From the NCBI GenBank assembly GCA_040754655.1, contig JBFMCE010000095.1:1-14772 (forward strand): a stretch of DNA of 14,772 nucleotides, in the 5' to 3' direction. This document shows, one piece after another, positions 1-7,911 of the stretch. The translations under genes and the position numbers were made by a program. Below the pieces are notes generated by a model. It had not been told where the DNA came from. It searched no databases and saw only the letters and a list, made by a program, of their open reading frames with translations. Positions within the stretch are counted from its first letter, which is position 1. Each line of letters begins with the position of its first letter. The stretch comes from Bdellovibrionota bacterium (GTDB taxonomy: Bacteria > Bdellovibrionota > UBA1018 > UBA923).

Positions 1-370
1 TGGGAGAAAGTCGTTCGCCTAGTGAAAACTTTTTGAAAAACCCAAGATTTTCAAGGTCTTATATGATGCATCGCAGCTAACGCTGCGAGCTACAAATGTA
101 TTTTTTCGGCACTCTAAAATTATCTGCGGCACCTCAAAAATCTGGACGAAATTAAAGCAAGTATACTTGAGTCGTTTGTTTTTTTAGGGACGACTTTTCT
201 CGGCTCGTTTAGGGCATGTAGGAGCTGCTTCTGCATAGCAGATTTGCACGCATCTAAACCTGGTAGAGCGGTACGTACTTCAAGAGCAATAACTAACGCA
301 TGGCGGTGAACAGGTGTAGATATTGAATAGGTACTGCTCCAGGCAGTTAAGGGTCTGGTCTGCGGATGTC

Positions 371-406
371 ATTTATTGGTGATAAGTTTAATTATCACCA
401 ATAAAT
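371..406. repeat. Perfect 15-bp inverted repeat with 6-bp spacer; candidate tyrosine-recombinase (dif/res-like) core site
   Basis: ATTTATTGGTGATAA (371-385), spacer GTTTAA (386-391), TTATCACCAATAAAT (392-406); the arms are exact reverse complements. The inner ATAA-N6-TTAT matches the dif/Xer core geometry. The repeat is certain; the function is inferred. Confidence 0.75.
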
Positions 407-536
407 ATCAGCCAATAAAACGAGTTTGTGGTCTTATGGTCGACCCCGTGATCAAGTAGCAGTTGTCACAGAGTTATAGAGATGTGGCAGAAGGGGGGCT
501 ATTTCGAAGGTGCCGCCGAAACTTGAGTCGGCTTGA

Positions 537-778
537 TCACTTGATACAATTCTCAATAAGCAGCTTGCCTACTCTAGAAAATTCTTTTTGATCATTGGTG
601 ACAAAACTTCAGAATTTTTCTGTGGATAGCTGCTCTTTTCAGCCCCATAGCGAAGTTCGCCAAGAGTAATAGATGAAATGGCGATTTCTGTCACTTTATG
701 ACGCTGAATGTTCTTAAGAAGAACCTCAGATTGTTCTCTAATGAGGTAGATGCAAATATTGGTGTCCAATAAATACAT
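537..778 (-). pseudogene. vapC: PIN-domain toxin VapC, internally deleted and frameshifted
   Basis: N-terminus MYLLDTNICIYLI...ISSITLGELRYGAEKS is typical VapC. The frame stops at 569 after 69 aa, but the typical C-terminus VTNDQKEFSRVGKLLIENCIK* is present in another frame (about 602 to TGA at 539-537), joined directly after KNSEVL. The ATG overlaps the vapB stop (TGATG). Confidence 0.9.
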
Positions 779-946
779 CAGTTAAAGAGTCCTTTGCGCT
801 TTTGGTGCTGGGGTTGTTGTCGTTCTTTCATGAGATCAGCGGAGAATTGGCTTAAGGTTGCAATTAGGAGCTGCCTAAGGATGATCTTGCGGGAGAAGCA
901 CGATTGCATTTCCAATCTTACGAATGAAAACTTCATCGGCCTCAAA
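778..946 (-). pseudogene. vapB: AbrB/VagC-type antitoxin VapB remnant (5'-truncated, +1 frameshift)
   Basis: Minus strand reads FEADEVFIRKIGNAIVLLPQDHP then TAG (877-875). Removing base 876 gives CCT TGG CAG = P-W-QLLIATLSQFSADLMKERQQPQHQKRKGLFN*, a typical VapB C-half. The usual N-terminal GRSQAVRLPK segment is not found upstream. Confidence 0.85.
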
Positions 947-1092
947 CCATTCCGACAAAGAGTTGAAATAAATGATCTTTTTTGAAGGTTCGCCGTCGTC
1001 TGTTTCGTGGGTGACACAGGTCAAACTTGCCTACATTTACTCCTTTTCAAGATGGTTTTAGGTCTTATTTGTTTTTCCCGATTATTTTTAAT

Positions 1093-1839
1093 ATGGGTAA
1101 GAAGTCTGTTCCGTTCAAAATCAAACCATTGTTTTTTTTAATTACTCTAATTGGATTAGCCCCTTTTTCCTTAGAAGCTGCTGATGGATGCCTATCGCGG
1201 GTTATTAGACCTTTAATTGGAAGCCAGGCTACTGAGTACATTAATGATTCCGTTGAGCTCATTTGGTATCCGAGAGCTGGATATGTTTTACTCTCACATT
1301 ACGAGCTTGGAATAGATGGCAAACTTTATTCAGCATTAATGGGCCTTGAGAAAAAAACCACAATAGAAGTAGCAACAAGAGCTGCAAAAAGCGGAGGAAA
1401 GGGCTTTTTTCGCTTCAAGCTTAGAGTTACGGCAGATGAGTTGGATCGGCTCAAGAATTATGTTGATAGCAATTTAAATAAGCCACGTTTTCAAATGTGT
1501 GTTGGTGGTGTTTGTAAAGTAATCACGAAAAATACGAGGGCCGTAATTCCATTTCCATTCTCAAAGGTCCCAACGCTGAATGCAATTTATCTTACAGTGG
1601 CTCACAAGCTTGGTTATTCGAGGATCGTTGGTATTGAATATGTAGGGAAAAGTGCGATTAGGAATCTTATTACTACCGAGATTCCCTATGAGCTATGGTT
1701 CACTTATCAATGGGCTAAGCCTGTGGGATTAGCTATTGTTTGGGCTTATAATGAAAGAAATGAATTGATTCGATTAATCGTTCCGATCGAAAGTAACAGT
1801 TCAGAAGAGCCTGAGAGCGATGAAACCGCGCCTGGTTAG
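1093..1839 (+). CDS. Secreted hypothetical protein, possible permuted papain-like (His...Cys) fold
   Basis: ORF 1027-1839. ATG at 1093 gives MGKKSVPFKIKPLFFLITLIGLAPFSLEA, a signal-peptide-like start. Contains the motifs SHYELGIDGKLYS and LRVTADELDRLKNY...FQMC. Visibly AT-richer than the downstream genes. Confidence 0.75.
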   Translation: MGKKSVPFKIKPLFFLITLIGLAPFSLEAADGCLSRVIRPLIGSQATEYINDSVELIWYPRAGYVLLSHYELGIDGKLYSALMGLEKKTTIEVATRAAKSGGKGFFRFKLRVTADELDRLKNYVDSNLNKPRFQMCVGGVCKVITKNTRAVIPFPFSKVPTLNAIYLTVAHKLGYSRIVGIEYVGKSAIRNLITTEIPYELWFTYQWAKPVGLAIVWAYNERNELIRLIVPIESNSSEEPESDETAPG

Positions 1840-1986
1840 CTTACTTTGTGCTAACCCGTGTCATTTGCGATGGTGCGCAAGCGTCTCAGATTAAAGTCTT
1901 TTACCTGGTAGCGTTTCGAACTATGTAGTTTGAAACCTCCAATCTTTTGTTCGCCTGTAAGTGCTCTTTTCTTTTCGTGCTGAGCT

Positions 1987-2011
1987 TGCGATAATCCGAA
2001 TACAAGAGGGG
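1987..2011 (+). promoter_or_regulatory. Possible extended -10 element and Shine-Dalgarno for the recombinase gene
   Basis: TG-C-GATAAT at 1987-1995 (one mismatch to TGnTATAAT) and AAGAGGGG at 2004-2011, 5 nt before TTG 2017. Confidence 0.4.
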
Positions 2012-2016
2012 ATTCT

Positions 2017-3297
2017 TTGAACGTTGTACGGCTTCTCGCGCAATTCTGTCTTGCACTCTGGTATTCCGCTCACGCTGGAGCAAGCGAGTTTCGGCAAGCC
2101 ATGCGCGACTATCTTTTGCCTGCGGACGGAAGTACACCAAGAAAGTTTGAGAGGAAGCCACTAGAACAAAGTGCAGATCACGGATTGCCGATAGCGGTTC
2201 GGGATTCCGTGCCCGTAACAGAATCCGAATCCAATTCCGAGGTCCGTGAACCGTTAACCGTTAACCGTCATCCGCAAACCGAACCCATTGTTTCACCAGT
2301 TCCCAATATTTTCCCTGTGCCAGCCGTCGCAACTGATTCTGCTGATTACGAAGTGATCGGCCTTTCAAATTGGAATACCCAAGCTTTTTGGGCTCATCTT
2401 GATTCTTTTCTTCAGGCACAGAACAGTGCCCATACCCGCAGAGCGTATGAACTCGACCTTATCGATTTTCTTTCGTACCTCAAGACGACCAGTAAACCGA
2501 TGAACGTGCACACCCTTATTGAGTACCGTGAAACCTTGCGCGTGCGCACGAGCAGTCGCACTGGGCAGCCTTTGTCTCATGTCTCGATCAACCGAAAAAT
2601 CGCGACCTTGAAATCGTTTCTTAATTGGCTTGTTTTGAACGGTGTGCTTCCTAACAATCCGGCAAAAGCAGTGAAGAGTTTTCGCGCGGGGCGCGAGTCT
2701 CCGACGCGTGATATTCCCAATGATCGCGTGAGGCAAATGCTCACCCTGCCACACCGCCACACCGTCGCCGGGCGGATGCACCACGCGATGCTGATGGTCT
2801 TGTTTCACCTTGGCCTGCGCAGGGCCGAGCTCATCGGACTTCGTACTTCAGATCTTTTTGAGCAAGAAGGCATGCGTGTGATTCGTGTGCGTGGCAAAGG
2901 CGATAAGGAGAGAGTCTTGCCTTTGACCCCAGAGGTCGCAAAGAGCATTGATACTTACCTTGAAATGTCACGCAAAGACGTTGCTGTTGATCAGCCTTTG
3001 TTCACTCCGGTAAAAAACAATGTCACCAAGACCAAAGACAAACCGCTGCATCCAAATGCAGTAGCCTATGTGGTGAAACACTATGCCGCGATGGCGGGCG
3101 TGCAATACCGAGTCTCGCCCCATTCCGCCCGCGCGACTGCCGTTTCAAATGCTCTAGACAATTTGGCCCCGCACCGCGCAGTGCAACACATGGCGGGTTG
3201 GAGTTCTCCGCTCATGGTGACGCGCTACGACAAGCGCAAACAGGAGCTTCGCAATTCCGCTGTGAAGTTCGTCCGTTACCAAGAAGAACAAGAATAG
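2017..3297 (+). CDS. Tyrosine-type site-specific recombinase/integrase with long N-terminal extension
   Basis: SAM-like core-binding domain (SAHTRRAYELDL...SINRKIATLKSFLNWL...NNPA) and a complete catalytic set: GLRRAEL (R), RGKGDKER (K), HSAR (HxxR), MAGW (W in place of the second His), TRYD (Y). The start is uncertain (TTG 2017 vs ATG 2101 or later). Confidence 0.93.
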   Translation: MNVVRLLAQFCLALWYSAHAGASEFRQAMRDYLLPADGSTPRKFERKPLEQSADHGLPIAVRDSVPVTESESNSEVREPLTVNRHPQTEPIVSPVPNIFPVPAVATDSADYEVIGLSNWNTQAFWAHLDSFLQAQNSAHTRRAYELDLIDFLSYLKTTSKPMNVHTLIEYRETLRVRTSSRTGQPLSHVSINRKIATLKSFLNWLVLNGVLPNNPAKAVKSFRAGRESPTRDIPNDRVRQMLTLPHRHTVAGRMHHAMLMVLFHLGLRRAELIGLRTSDLFEQEGMRVIRVRGKGDKERVLPLTPEVAKSIDTYLEMSRKDVAVDQPLFTPVKNNVTKTKDKPLHPNAVAYVVKHYAAMAGVQYRVSPHSARATAVSNALDNLAPHRAVQHMAGWSSPLMVTRYDKRKQELRNSAVKFVRYQEEQE

Positions 3298-3419
3298 AAC
3301 TGAAATAAATTTCCCCCAAGCCAAAGCGCGTGACATTTTGGTGGGAAGACACCTAATGTGTGCTCCATATCTTTTTAGGGATTAATAAACAGGACTTTGT
3401 TGGTTGGGGGCGTTCAACA

Positions 3420-5729: not shown

Positions 5730-5816
5730 TTAGCGCGCAGAGTCAAAAAAATCTATCAGAATCTCTTTTATACTCTCGCCAAATCCCAAGATTCTTTGCC
5801 AAATTGTAGAATACCT

Positions 5817-7049
5817 ATGTCTGCTTTGAAGATCTCGGATCGAAACTTAAGGTTCTTCTCGAGGAAAAAGACTTTCGCGATCTTTCCTTTGGTTTTCTTC
5901 GCGGCGCTTTTGATCAGCCGTGTTCATTTGCCTGAAAACCTAGTTTTTGATGAGATCCATTACGTTCCCGCGGCGAAATCCCTCATTTTGTTTCAAGACA
6001 ATTTGAATTGGGTTCATCCACCCTTAGGAAAGTTGATTTTGGGCGCCGGATGGTGGGTGTTCACAAAGTCGCTTCATCTCTTGAGCGAACCCACAGTGTT
6101 TCGGTGGATGACTCTTGTATTTGGTCTTTGGGTGCTTTGGGCTGTTCGGGGCCTCTTGCTTGCGTTGGGATACTCTCAAACGGCCACTGCTGCCGCGGTC
6201 TGGCTTACGGGCTTCAATGGCCTTTGGTTCGTGCAAAGCAAAATCGCGATGCTCGATATTTTCTATGTCGCATTTGGAATCTGGGGATTGCTTGAAATCC
6301 ATCGCCAGCGATTAAGAGGCTGGCTTCACCTTGGACTTGCATTGGCGTGCAAATGGGCGGCTCTACCGTTTTTTGCGATCGGGCTTTTTATGGGCTTCAA
6401 TAAACGCCCGGGCCGTTTGTTCTTAGGCCTAGGCCTGGCGTTTGCCGCTTATTTCGTTTGTTTTATACCGCTCGTTTTTCTAGAGAAAAACGCTGTCCCC
6501 TTGGGTTCATTTTTCAGCTATCATACTCAAATGCTTGAGGGGTTTTCTCACCTTATCGAGAACACCCATCCTTATGCCTCAAGCTGGTGGCAATGGCCTA
6601 CCCTCTTGCGTCCTCTCTGGTATGCTTTTGACGATCAATCAACGGCTGAGCATGCGGTTTGGGCTGGTGGAAACCCTCTGCTCTATTGGCCAGCGCTCCC
6701 TCTTCTCGTTTGTGTCTTGTACTTTGGGCTCTTCAAGAAGGATCAACAGGCACGCTTGTTGAGTCTCTTGTACTGGGTGCCGCTGTTGTTCTGGGCGTTT
6801 TCATCCCGCAAATTGCAGCTCTATTATTACTATCTTCCATCAAGCATTTGGGTGGGCGCGGTTTTTGTGTGGGCTCACGAAAAAGCATGGGGTCAGTACA
6901 GCGCTTTGAGAAGATCTCGGGGATGGACGCTTGCGGGCTACGTGCTTCTTTGCGGGGCCACGTTTCTGTATTTCCTGCCTGTCATGGACGGACGAGCTCT
7001 TTTGCCGGGTCGGCATCTTCTTTATATGTGGCTTCAGAGCTGGATTTAA
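5817..7049 (+). CDS. Phospholipid-carrier-dependent glycosyltransferase, PMT/GT39 family (protein O-mannosyltransferase-like)
   Basis: Polytopic membrane protein with the PMT signatures VFDEIHY, HPPLGK, SKIAMLDIF, ACKW, HPYASSWWQWP, GGNPLL and YYYYLP. ATG 5817 preferred over TTG 5796. Confidence 0.88.
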   Translation: MSALKISDRNLRFFSRKKTFAIFPLVFFAALLISRVHLPENLVFDEIHYVPAAKSLILFQDNLNWVHPPLGKLILGAGWWVFTKSLHLLSEPTVFRWMTLVFGLWVLWAVRGLLLALGYSQTATAAAVWLTGFNGLWFVQSKIAMLDIFYVAFGIWGLLEIHRQRLRGWLHLGLALACKWAALPFFAIGLFMGFNKRPGRLFLGLGLAFAAYFVCFIPLVFLEKNAVPLGSFFSYHTQMLEGFSHLIENTHPYASSWWQWPTLLRPLWYAFDDQSTAEHAVWAGGNPLLYWPALPLLVCVLYFGLFKKDQQARLLSLLYWVPLLFWAFSSRKLQLYYYYLPSSIWVGAVFVWAHEKAWGQYSALRRSRGWTLAGYVLLCGATFLYFLPVMDGRALLPGRHLLYMWLQSWI

Positions 7050-7911
7050 CTAGCGGATTTTTTTGTGACAGATCCGCTGCAAGCGGACGGTACACACGAA
7101 AAGCGTATGGCGTCTTCAATCCTAGCGATTGCATGATTTCAGTTTCATTCTTTCCTTGCAGGAGGTTCTCGATCACAAAGAGATGCCTGAGGGTTCGTGG
7201 ATGCAAATGTTTCGCGCCTAATGAAGTCGCCCAGCCTTTGAATAACAATTCGACCCCTCTGGCGGTCAACCGTTCCGCATTGGGGCCGGCCTTCGAGTAT
7301 CCATAAAAGAAATATTTAGGTCCCTTCAAAAGAGCGGCGACCTGTTTAAGTGCCTCGGCGGTTGATTTGGAGACACGAACTTTGCGGGCTCTTTTGCCTC
7401 CGATAGAAAGCATGGCGCCCGTCTTATCCCAAAAACAGTCTTGCGGGCGAAGCGCTAAGGCCTCGGTGACAAGCATGCCCGTATCGAGAAGCACACCGAT
7501 CAATGCACGATTTCTAAATCCGATTGAAGATGTCGGTTGTGCTTCCATCAATCCCATCAGGCTTTCACGTGGAACGAGTCTAGGAGGCGCTTCAACCTTA
7601 TCAGGCGGAATGATTTTCTCTGAACCCACGGTGCTGACATCCATTCGCCCTGAGAGGTATCGGAGAAAGGATTTCGCGGTCATCAGTTTTCGTCTTCTCG
7701 AGTTGGGACGAAGACCTCGGATTTTGAGATCTTCATGATAAGCCTCCAGTTCGGTGAGGCCGAGTTTCTGGAAGTCAAAACCTCTGGTTTGACAGAACTG
7801 TCCTAGCTCAGCCAGGTCACACGCATAATTTTTGATCGTGTTTATGGCCTTGCCTCTGGCTTGCAGGAATCCTAAAAAAGTTTTCTTGGCTCGCTCGAAC
7901 GCTATAGACAT
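6982..7911 (-). CDS. XerD/XerC-like tyrosine recombinase homolog with degenerate active site
   Basis: Xer-like N-domain (AINTIKNYACDL, NSRRRKLMTAKSFLRYL) and the motifs GFRNRALIGVLLDTGMLVTE, HPRTLRHLF, QSLGL, FRVY. The catalytic Arg and both His positions are substituted. Overlaps the PMT 3' end by 68 bp. Confidence 0.88.
   Translation of the reverse strand: MSIAFERAKKTFLGFLQARGKAINTIKNYACDLAELGQFCQTRGFDFQKLGLTELEAYHEDLKIRGLRPNSRRRKLMTAKSFLRYLSGRMDVSTVGSEKIIPPDKVEAPPRLVPRESLMGLMEAQPTSSIGFRNRALIGVLLDTGMLVTEALALRPQDCFWDKTGAMLSIGGKRARKVRVSKSTAEALKQVAALLKGPKYFFYGYSKAGPNAERLTARGVELLFKGWATSLGAKHLHPRTLRHLFVIENLLQGKNETEIMQSLGLKTPYAFRVYRPLAADLSQKNPLVKSSSEATYKEDADPAKELVRP

Follow-up and report, generated by a model that had tools for sequence, protein, structure and literature searches.

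A Xer-like tyrosine recombinase of the Bdellovibrionota with a predicted N-terminal helix on a disordered linker and a probable dif-like site

Recombination at dif by a single Xer enzyme has several precedents, namely XerS/difSL in streptococci and lactococci, XerH/difH in Helicobacter and Campylobacter, and XerA/dif in archaea, as described in PMC1914069, PMC2965235, and PMC5357621, and the criteria set out for XerL/dif of the Legionellales in PMC9765430 are a palindromic, non-coding site of ~30 bp that lies near the terminus and has varying flanks. For Bdellovibrio bacteriovorus, an XerCD pair (Bd3064/Bd2300) and a dif site at the terminus have been assigned in silico (PMC11318664, PMC2731167), and the review PMC11318664 names as unresolved the separation of genomes in the multi-chromosome filaments of predatory bacteria, which undergo synchronous septation. 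Here, we analyzed contig JBFMCE010000095.1 of a Bdellovibrionota bacterium (GenBank assembly GCA_040754655.1), a stretch of 14,772 nucleotides referred to throughout as the window, which contains a tyrosine recombinase gene at 2017-3297 on the + strand, here named REC1, and, upstream of it, a 28-bp dif-like palindrome at 375..402. Our preferred reading, to which we assign a probability of roughly 0.6, is that REC1 and the palindrome constitute a second, single-recombinase module of the dif/Xer type that exists beside XerCD/dif, and that the N-terminal helix of the protein is a tether and not a cleaved Sec signal. Full-text searches of one literature collection found no description of the REC1 family, its helix, or the palindrome.

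REC1 encodes 426 amino acids between a TTG start codon and a TAG stop codon (3295-3297), an assignment supported by the open reading frame (ORF), Pfam, NCBIfam, and AlphaFold, and the best reading of its sequence is a cytoplasmic Xer-like tyrosine recombinase. The initial annotation had placed the beginning of the recombinase core near residue 120, behind a disordered stretch rich in Pro, Glu, and Ser, and this layout held up, with a confident fold from residue 116 and a linker spanning residues 34-115. The core-binding and catalytic domains occupy residues 116-426 (2362..3294, + strand) according to Pfam, the alignment with XerD, and the AlphaFold model, with Phage_int_SAM_1 (PF02899) matching at 131-207 (36.2 bits; cut-off, 22.3) and Phage_integrase (PF00589) at 234-407 (82 bits; cut-off, 27.1). 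The catalytic set is complete (R268, K294, H369, R372, W395, and Y404) and invariant in a 91-sequence alignment (A1). The first five of these residues correspond to R148, K172, H244, R247, and H270 of Escherichia coli XerD (1a0p), and Y404 was assigned from the invariant R403-Y404 motif because the XerD alignment stops at query residue 399. The best NCBIfam match of REC1 is XerC TIGR02224, at 150.4 bits against a cut-off of 335.15, and XerD TIGR02225 gives 133.7 bits against 329.6; better XerC-like and XerD-like genes are present in the same genome on contigs C17 and C5 (277 and 308 bits), and an XerC/D-type gene there reaches 309.5 bits on PRK00283 (cut-off, 279). The folds matched by the REC1 model include the archaeal XerA-like protein 4a8e (Z = 20.1 over 258 aa), the integrase of phage Brujita (5vfz; Z = 19.1), XerA (5hxy; Z = 18.4), Cre (1kbu; Z = 17.8, root-mean-square deviation [rmsd] of 5.0 over 262 aa), and XerH on difH (5jjv; Z = 17.6, rmsd of 4.0 over 260 aa), every structural match beginning at model residue 100 or later.

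Relatives of REC1 are encoded in 163 species loci. The best 80 of these carry Bdellovibrionota-type labels (Bacteriovoracia, Oligoflexia, Bdellovibrionia, and similar), the exceptions being a few generic labels and two odd ones, candidate division WWE3 and Nitrosovibrio, which are taken to be binning or naming errors; by the best 80 of the 163 loci, the family is confined to the Bdellovibrionota. Its members share a common layout, consisting of an amphipathic helix of ~30 residues that is usually rich in Arg/Lys and Trp/Phe, a disordered linker of ~30-150 residues, and a body with the complete R-K-H-R-W-Y set.

The window palindrome, identified by inverted-repeat search and inspection of the sequence, has an 11-6-11 organization, ATTGGTGATAA GTTTAA TTATCACCAAT, with perfectly palindromic arms and a symmetry that reaches 15-6-15 (371-406). 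The element was first sighted in a scan of the flanks of REC1 orthologues for imperfect palindromes, in which the same 11-6-11 element appeared beside the gene across the phylum. With a strict detector, defined by an ATAA-N6-TTAT core and palindromic outer seven bases with at most two mismatches and applied to 80 loci of up to 6 kb, exactly one site was found in 56 of the 80 loci versus 3 of 1600 shuffled loci. In 36 loci, the site is located just upstream of REC1, 5-65 bp before the start codon (median of 29.5 bp to the first in-frame start), in 19 it is found 45-2281 bp downstream, and in one it falls inside an over-extended ORF call. The identity of the arms implies one binding protein, and the sequence evidence makes the palindrome at 375-402 the probable recombination site of REC1.

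At 0-1 mismatch, the window site is the sole copy in the 3.78-Mb assembly, and a looser detector returned three hits in this genome versus ~1.3 expected by chance. Ten further REC1-bearing genomes were searched and the site was present once per genome in eight, with only a one-mismatch hit in G014 and an extra one-mismatch hit in G032; one perfect site each was recovered from G027, G029, G035, G011, G028, G020, and G032. In genus g17, each of the three genomes with REC1 holds one perfect site adjoining the gene, and the five without REC1 (93-98% complete) hold no core-keeping site at up to three mismatches, their sole three-mismatch hit being devoid of the ATAA/TTAT core. One of the REC1-less genomes retains a 50-aa remnant of the REC1 C terminus. 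Thus, REC1 and the site were lost together in five of the eight g17 genomes. Frames of 473 aa that were hit in the REC1-less genomes turned out to be ordinary 308-aa XerC/D-type genes with no palindrome nearby. Separately, the genome of the window contains, at G000:C104:7094, a site of the same form with one arm mismatch, ATTTCCCATAA TTATAG TTATAGGAAAT; ~1.3 such sites are expected by chance per 3.8 Mb.

The separation of site and gene in the window was traced by comparison with close relatives. In a blastn search with window positions 1-2100, the only part conserved with loci L038, L039, and L029 was a 53-bp block at 370..422 (96-98% identity), which comprises the site and its flank, and a shorter stretch (29-50 bp, 92-97%) was conserved with L041, L024, L040, L030, L111, and L099. 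The block is more conserved than the REC1 protein and, in the closest relatives, abuts the Shine-Dalgarno (SD) sequence and start codon of REC1. Because nothing but 370-422 is conserved, and because this block adjoins the REC1 start in relatives, positions 423..~1980 represent an insertion of ~1.6 kb between the site and REC1 (423..1980). The inserted segment contains a PIN-domain fragment of 69 aa that covers only profile positions 1-54 of 120 in Pfam (569-778, - strand), a 79-aa ORF in an antitoxin-like position with no family match (778-1017, - strand), and a 270-aa ORF with no family (1027-1839, + strand), and may represent what is left of an element that integrated at the site; a further copy of the site was not found. 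At the right-hand boundary of the island, GCGATAA (1988-1994) resembles a half-site; it was considered as a junction scar and set aside, given that ~3.8 matches of this quality to the 11-nt arm are expected by chance per 1.6 kb. Similarly discarded as a dif candidate was an imperfect 10-6-10 palindrome at 1912-1937 (CGTTTCGAAC TATGTA GTTTGAAACC), for which relatives give only noise with three or four mismatches; it occurs once in the window, with ~80 bp between it and the REC1 start codon, its arms have no sequence in common with those of the 375-402 site, and we treated it as a chance occurrence.

The body of REC1 is preceded by an N-terminal helix at residues 2-33 (2020..2115, + strand), delineated by AlphaFold and by alignment with the basic helices of relatives, and by the linker at residues 34-115 (2116..2361, + strand), delineated by composition and AlphaFold. 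The N terminus reads MNVVRLLAQFCLALWYSAHA/GA, and the 82 residues of the linker include 12 P, 8 E, 8 S, 5 T, and 5 D (46% P/E/S/T/D) with a net charge of -6; the length and sequence of the linker vary among REC1 relatives. The full-length AlphaFold model, built on the 91-sequence alignment, has a mean predicted local distance difference test (pLDDT) score of 83.7, with one continuous helix at 2-33 (pLDDT of 93-97), scores below 50 across most of 42-111, and a confident two-domain body from residue 116. When residues 1-135 were folded alone, with 60 sequences, helices were predicted at 2-19 and 22-33 (pLDDT of 73-83); since the helix is still predicted under these conditions, it appears intrinsic to the N terminus. 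The higher pLDDT in the full-length model may reflect packing of the helix on the body or merely the different alignment. A search of the ESM Atlas with residues 1-123 yielded no usable match by features and, by structure, only template modeling (TM) scores of 0.19-0.30.

A protein database search with REC1 produced 672 homologues, and the best 120 of these, mostly 350-445 aa long, match only the C-terminal ~70% of the query. Nevertheless, 110 of the 120 carry an extension of at least 40 aa ahead of the core (median length of 84 aa; range, 0-179). At the nucleotide level, the frame 5' of the core is open for 62-217 codons in all 24 relatives' loci examined and for at least 58 codons (median, 105) in all 76 informative species loci, the chance of 58 and 105 stop-free codons being ~0.06 and ~0.006 each. 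Scored by the codon usage of its own genome, the frame of REC1 is favored over the alternatives at both 2017-2100 (+0.02 in frame versus -0.33 and -0.30 off frame) and 2101-2385, a segment that ends 24 nt beyond the linker (+0.14 versus -0.73 and -0.94), and the 174 nt upstream of REC1 score -0.86. The N termini of relatives fall into three motif classes, each rich in Leu, Phe/Trp, and Arg/Lys, and the more distant subfamilies display long stretches rich in Lys, Arg, and Pro on the C-terminal side of the helix. The initial annotation had entertained a fortuitous extension and a fusion with the 5' end of a secreted-protein gene. The former is excluded by the conservation of the open frame, in 76 of 76 and 24 of 24 loci and in 110 of 120 homologues, together with the codon usage, and the latter by the homology of the REC1 N terminus to those of its closest relatives: within the first 30 residues, V3, L7, A13, L14, Y16, S17, and FRQAM are identical in L038, and VVR, F, A, L, S, A, and R are identical in P0006.

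Several properties of the helix point to the membrane. It is terminal, amphipathic, basic, and aromatic and sits on a long disordered linker, which favors a membrane tether, and so does the conservation of its character without conservation of sequence, five basic residues being dispensable in the present lineage. In the first 45 aa of 110 homologues, the median net charge is +5 and five residues are aromatic, and the best hydrophobic moment has a median of 0.53, versus 0.42 in shuffles and 0.34 in linker ends. Helix identity to the window protein is 9-37% (alignment A2), versus 37-75% for the whole protein (alignment A1), and such divergence next to a conserved body is more readily explained by lipid binding than by a specific docking surface; in 10 of the 110 homologues, the helix has drifted from amphipathic to nearly transmembrane-like. 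Short amphipathic helices are established membrane-targeting elements, as in the C-terminal helices of MinD and FtsA and the N termini of SecA and MreB. The most likely role of the helix, as predicted from its sequence, is therefore that of a peripheral membrane anchor at the inner face, with a partner protein, the REC1 body itself, or DNA being less likely binding partners. Two observations weigh against this assignment. The gain in amphipathic moment is modest, the 95th percentile of the shuffles being 0.63, and the rise in pLDDT from 73-83 for the isolated N terminus to 93-97 in the full-length model may mean that the helix packs on the body and not on lipid.

The latter point is also the first argument for the strongest competing explanation, namely that the helix is a docking element for protein or DNA and not a membrane anchor, which we consider possible, if somewhat unlikely. 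The candidate targets would be the REC1 body, either in cis (autoinhibition) or in trans (tetramer assembly), the neighboring recombinase-like protein REC2 described below, FtsK or another protein of the divisome or segregation machinery, or flanking DNA, to which a basic face might bind in the manner of the arm-binding domain of heterobivalent integrases. The layout of N-terminal element, linker, and core indeed recalls lambda-type integrases. Consistent with docking, the charge of the first 45 aa is positive (+5), Lys/Arg/Pro-rich stretches follow the helix in distant subfamilies, 12 of 14 loci retain a REC2-type gene at a distance of a few kb, and sequence conservation reaches ~20 bp past the 28-bp site. 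However, the helix is poorly conserved between subfamilies that share a highly conserved body, which is unexpected for a specific interface, the loss of about five basic residues in this lineage would weaken DNA binding, and the linker of the window protein is acidic (net -6). A tether to the membrane thus appears the better description of the helix. No tyrosine recombinase with a terminal helix of this kind was found in the full-text literature searches.

To place the module on the chromosome, GC skew was sampled in 20-kb chunks on five large contigs of relatives, the window contig being too short. The switch from + to - skew, which is the signature of a terminus, lies 3-68 kb from the REC1 locus in all five: on G027:C1, REC1 is at 420 kb (419.8 kb) and the switch at ~430-438 kb; on G041:C1, at 733 kb and 736-746 kb; on G042:C5, at 331 kb and 322-328 kb; on G043:C2, at 218 kb and between 150 and 190 kb; and on G005:C2, at 140 kb (139.9 kb) and 80-90 kb. 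The REC1 module thus occupies the terminus region without coinciding with the switch. A generic XerCD-dif pattern (ATAA-N6-TTATGTNAA) matches in 30 of 41 relatives with nearly identical sequences within genera, and these canonical-dif candidates are located 3.5-52 kb from the REC1 site (3.7 kb in G035, 3.5 kb in G036, and 8.5 kb in G029). The genome of the window has such a candidate, GGTTCTGATAA GATAGA TTATGTAAACT, at G000:C18:4868-4886, which is near-identical to the sites of relatives at the skew switches of G005 and G027.

The coexistence of the two systems is a difficulty for our interpretation of REC1 and its site as a dedicated module. XerC/D-type genes recognized by the XerD model, usually two, are present in 39 of the 41 relatives, the genome of the window included; in many of them a canonical-dif-like site matches the skew switch better than the REC1 site does, as at 88.1 kb in G005 and 438.3 kb in G027; and five of the eight g17 genomes do without REC1. 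In genomes with XerC/D and a better-placed canonical dif, REC1 is not needed as a dimer resolvase. Furthermore, 24 of the 80 loci contain no site within ~2.5 kb, three of these having a three-mismatch site upstream, and in families f3 and f12 the site, still single-copy, is separated from the gene by 12-15 kb or found on a different contig. Finally, in 36 loci the site occupies promoter territory, 5-65 bp before the start codon. An alternative reading is that the palindrome is not a substrate of REC1 but an operator of the REC1 promoter or a site for XerC/XerD, with REC1 acting elsewhere, for instance on a mobile element, or being a domesticated integrase; the promoter-proximal position in 36 loci, the prevalence of XerC/D-type genes, and the dispensability of REC1 in g17 speak for such an arrangement. 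We regard it as quite unlikely, though, for the following reasons. The 19 downstream sites and the single-copy sites at 12-15 kb do not fit an operator; the site and the gene are present together and absent together within one genus; and the 11-6-11 organization, ATAA/TTAT core, and identical arms constitute the layout of a single-recombinase dif, with XerH-difH among the best folds matched by REC1. Moreover, two genomes without XerC/D retain the site. In G011 (97% complete) and G028 (95% complete), both of family f3, the search for XerC/D-type genes at E up to 1e-40 and that for the canonical-dif pattern were both negative, and each genome keeps REC1 and one perfect palindromic site. That REC1 and its site were lost in some lineages and apparently XerCD in others is suggestive, being the pattern expected of two systems that do the same job, as seen in metagenome-assembled genomes and over few events.

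Substantially weaker is the case for a genuine cleavable Sec signal at the N terminus, with REC1, or the copy of this lineage, exported to the periplasm or beyond. The initial annotation had noted a Sec-signal-like peptide and had raised, as one possibility, an exported or membrane-tethered recombinase, and the resemblance is real insofar as the window protein passes a crude signal heuristic: a single basic residue (R5) is followed by an uncharged LLAQFCLAL run (mean Kyte-Doolittle value of 2.29) and by a small-x-small motif, A-H-A before G. A few relatives are equally hydrophobic, the heuristic being passed in 8 of 79 loci, in two of them via over-extended first starts, and an uncharged hydrophobic 10-mer with a mean Kyte-Doolittle value of at least 2, as well as a 19-residue window of at least 1.6, occurring in 10 of the 110 homologues each. 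These features speak for export and against our interpretation, but the homologous helix in close relatives holds 3-5 Arg/Lys within the would-be h-region and no A-x-A. In L038, which is 83% identical to REC1 in the core, the N terminus M-V-T-S-K-L-R-R-L-G-R-A-L-V-Y-S-Y-R-G-A-L-L-A-F-R-Q-A-M aligns with N-V-V-R-L-L-A-Q-F-C-L-A-L-W-Y-S-A-H-A-G-A-S-E-F-R-Q-A-M of the window protein, such that the h-region of the latter matches a stretch with four Arg/Lys. The A-H-A/G-A segment aligns with Y-R-G-A-L in L038 and A-R-A-A-I in P0006, in mid-helix in both, and the small-x-small cleavage motif A-H-A/G is present in the window protein only, not in the orthologues. In the window lineage, L, A, Q, L, and H have replaced about five basic residues (K, R, R, R, and R), and this loss accounts for the chance n-h-c appearance of a signal. 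In addition, the best 8-residue hydrophobicity of the REC1 N terminus is 2.1, below the 2.8-3.4 of real signal and lipoprotein peptides encoded in the window, the modeled helix 2-33 runs unbroken through the supposed cleavage site, and the protein has a complete catalytic set and a chromosomal DNA site beside its gene. Hence, of the features noted initially, the basic residue, hydrophobic run, and A-x-A are present but are not conserved in the family and align with a basic amphipathic helix; among homologues, the extension itself is conserved (at least 40 aa in 110 of 120), and its signal-like character is not (8 of 79 loci). Sec export of the recombinase is accordingly judged highly improbable, and of the suggestion of an exported or tethered enzyme only the tether survives, as a probable peripheral amphipathic helix on a cytoplasmic protein.

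Just as improbable is a late start, with REC1 translated from ATG 2101 or farther downstream and the helix not produced in the host organism: TTG is the rarer start codon, and the codon score of 2017-2100 (+0.02) falls at about the 5th percentile of true coding chunks of 28 codons, but an SD sequence stands 5 nt from TTG 2017 and none at ATG 2101, residues 2-28 are conserved as protein among relatives, the two closest relatives examined (L038 and L039) likewise have a TTG start with a G-rich SD, and the off-frame codon scores are clearly below the in-frame score. The nearest in-frame stop 5' of REC1 is TGA 1981-1983, and TTG 2017 is the sole ATG, GTG, or TTG in the REC1 frame between this stop and ATG 2101. 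In agreement with the initial annotation, the ORF begins at TTG 2017 with a well-spaced SD-like AAGAGGGG (2004..2011, + strand; 5 nt ahead of the codon), the 22 nt preceding ATG 2101 are devoid of an SD-like run, and the extended -10-like string TGCGATAAT, a putative element, is present nearby at 1987..1995 (+ strand), although a scan of 1840-2016 for two-hexamer consensus promoters found no promoter-like site. Rfam (E up to 0.1) and ARAGORN gave no match and no tRNA, respectively, over 1-3400.

Downstream of REC1, the window encodes a second protein of the same type, REC2 (6982..7911, - strand), a 309-aa tyrosine-recombinase-like protein identified by Pfam, synteny, and alignment with XerD, in which the active site is degenerate. 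Compared with XerD, Arg-I is replaced by Leu, His-II by Arg, and His-III by Leu; the same losses are found in REC2 orthologues (12 of 13, 12 of 12, and 11 of 12, respectively), in 3 of 12 of which the Tyr is F or L. Judged by these substitutions, REC2 is probably a non-catalytic DNA-binding or accessory protein, and synteny makes it a possible accessory partner of REC1: in 12 of 14 stretches of 19 kb from relatives, REC1 lies within a few kb of a REC2-type gene. Within these 12, a PMT-like glycosyltransferase is located between REC1 and REC2 in nine, beside them in one, and absent in two, and genes of a liv transporter adjoin the REC1-REC2 cluster in nine. Because the cluster is kept among relatives, the REC1 family is vertically inherited and chromosomal, not a cargo integrase. 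The idea that the REC1-REC2 segment is invertible was rejected, as no convincing flanking inverted repeats were found and an old rearrangement apparently accounts for the inverted REC1 of distant families. In the window, the PMT/GT-C-like membrane glycosyltransferase (PF16192, 44.5 bits; PF02366, weak) is encoded at 5796-7049 (+ strand), its 3' end overlapping REC2 convergently by 68 nt, and a tRNA-Leu (GAG) gene is found at the right end of the contig (14638-14722, + strand).

Taken together with the preferred reading, these features suggest how the module might work. REC1 would act on the single-copy 28-bp palindrome with its ATAA-N6-TTAT core, which in the window has been displaced by 1.6 kb by the island. 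Since its two arms are identical and each chromosome carries it once, the site could recombine only with its counterpart on a sister chromosome or in the same dimer, and because a single-copy, identical-arm site in the terminus region is combined with an Xer-type enzyme, a module for chromosome unlinking or dimer resolution is the most economical reading. The helix, on its flexible tether, would hold REC1 at the inner face of the membrane, and anchoring of this kind would restrict recombination to DNA lying close to the envelope or septum. A more far-reaching version, which we advance tentatively and consider doubtful, is that of a second, self-contained unlinking system, redundant with XerCD/dif, in which the helix would bring REC1 to the membrane or septum and so replace or supplement FtsK, perhaps with REC2 as an accessory factor; such a system might be adapted to growth as filaments that contain many chromosomes and form multiple septa synchronously.

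If the REC1 module does resolve or unlink chromosomes, it would offer a testable handle on genome separation in predatory bacteria. What appears to be new is a phylum-wide Xer-type recombinase with a terminal helix on a disordered tether, kept together with a dif-like palindrome alongside XerCD/dif, and to our knowledge REC1 would be the first Xer enzyme with a built-in element for localization or assembly. That the idea of a secreted recombinase is very unlikely is a useful result in itself, and the REC1 site could serve as a practical marker of the terminus region in the fragmented metagenome-assembled genomes of the Bdellovibrionota.

The likeness of the REC1 N terminus to Sec type I signal peptides is limited to the window protein, in which one basic residue precedes 9-11 uncharged hydrophobic residues and an A-x-A motif; unlike such peptides, the REC1 pattern is not conserved, the cleavage motif falls in mid-helix in relatives, the hydrophobicity is lower, and the passenger is an enzyme acting on DNA. 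With the membrane-targeting helices of MinD, FtsA, SecA, and MreB, the REC1 helix shares its short length and terminal position, a hydrophobic and aromatic face, basic residues, and the disordered linker, as well as a variable sequence with a conserved physico-chemical character, whereas the lipid binding of REC1 is putative and its amphipathic moment only modestly above that of shuffles.

XerC/XerD-dif of E. coli and REC1 belong to the same superfamily and have the same six-residue active site, with Trp replacing His-III in REC1, and the sites of both systems are organized 11-6-11 around an ATAA-N6-TTAT core and lie in the terminus region. In contrast to XerC and XerD, REC1 scores far under the respective cut-offs in a genome with separate XerC-like and XerD-like genes, the arms of its site are identical, and its gene and site are linked, as xerC and xerD are not. 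The single-recombinase systems (XerS, XerH, XerL, and XerA) serve as precedents. REC1 differs from them in sharing most genomes with XerC/D-type genes and a canonical-dif-like site, in being dispensable in some lineages, in the distance of 3-68 kb between its site and the skew switch, and in carrying a helix and a long linker, a region outside the matched XerA, XerH, and XerD chains; its recombinase activity is predicted from sequence. Like these systems, however, it combines one enzyme with a linked inverted-arm site of the ~28-31-bp class with a 6-nt-class spacer, the site is single-copy and located in the terminus region, and the fold of the enzyme matches those of 4a8e, 5hxy, and 5jjv.

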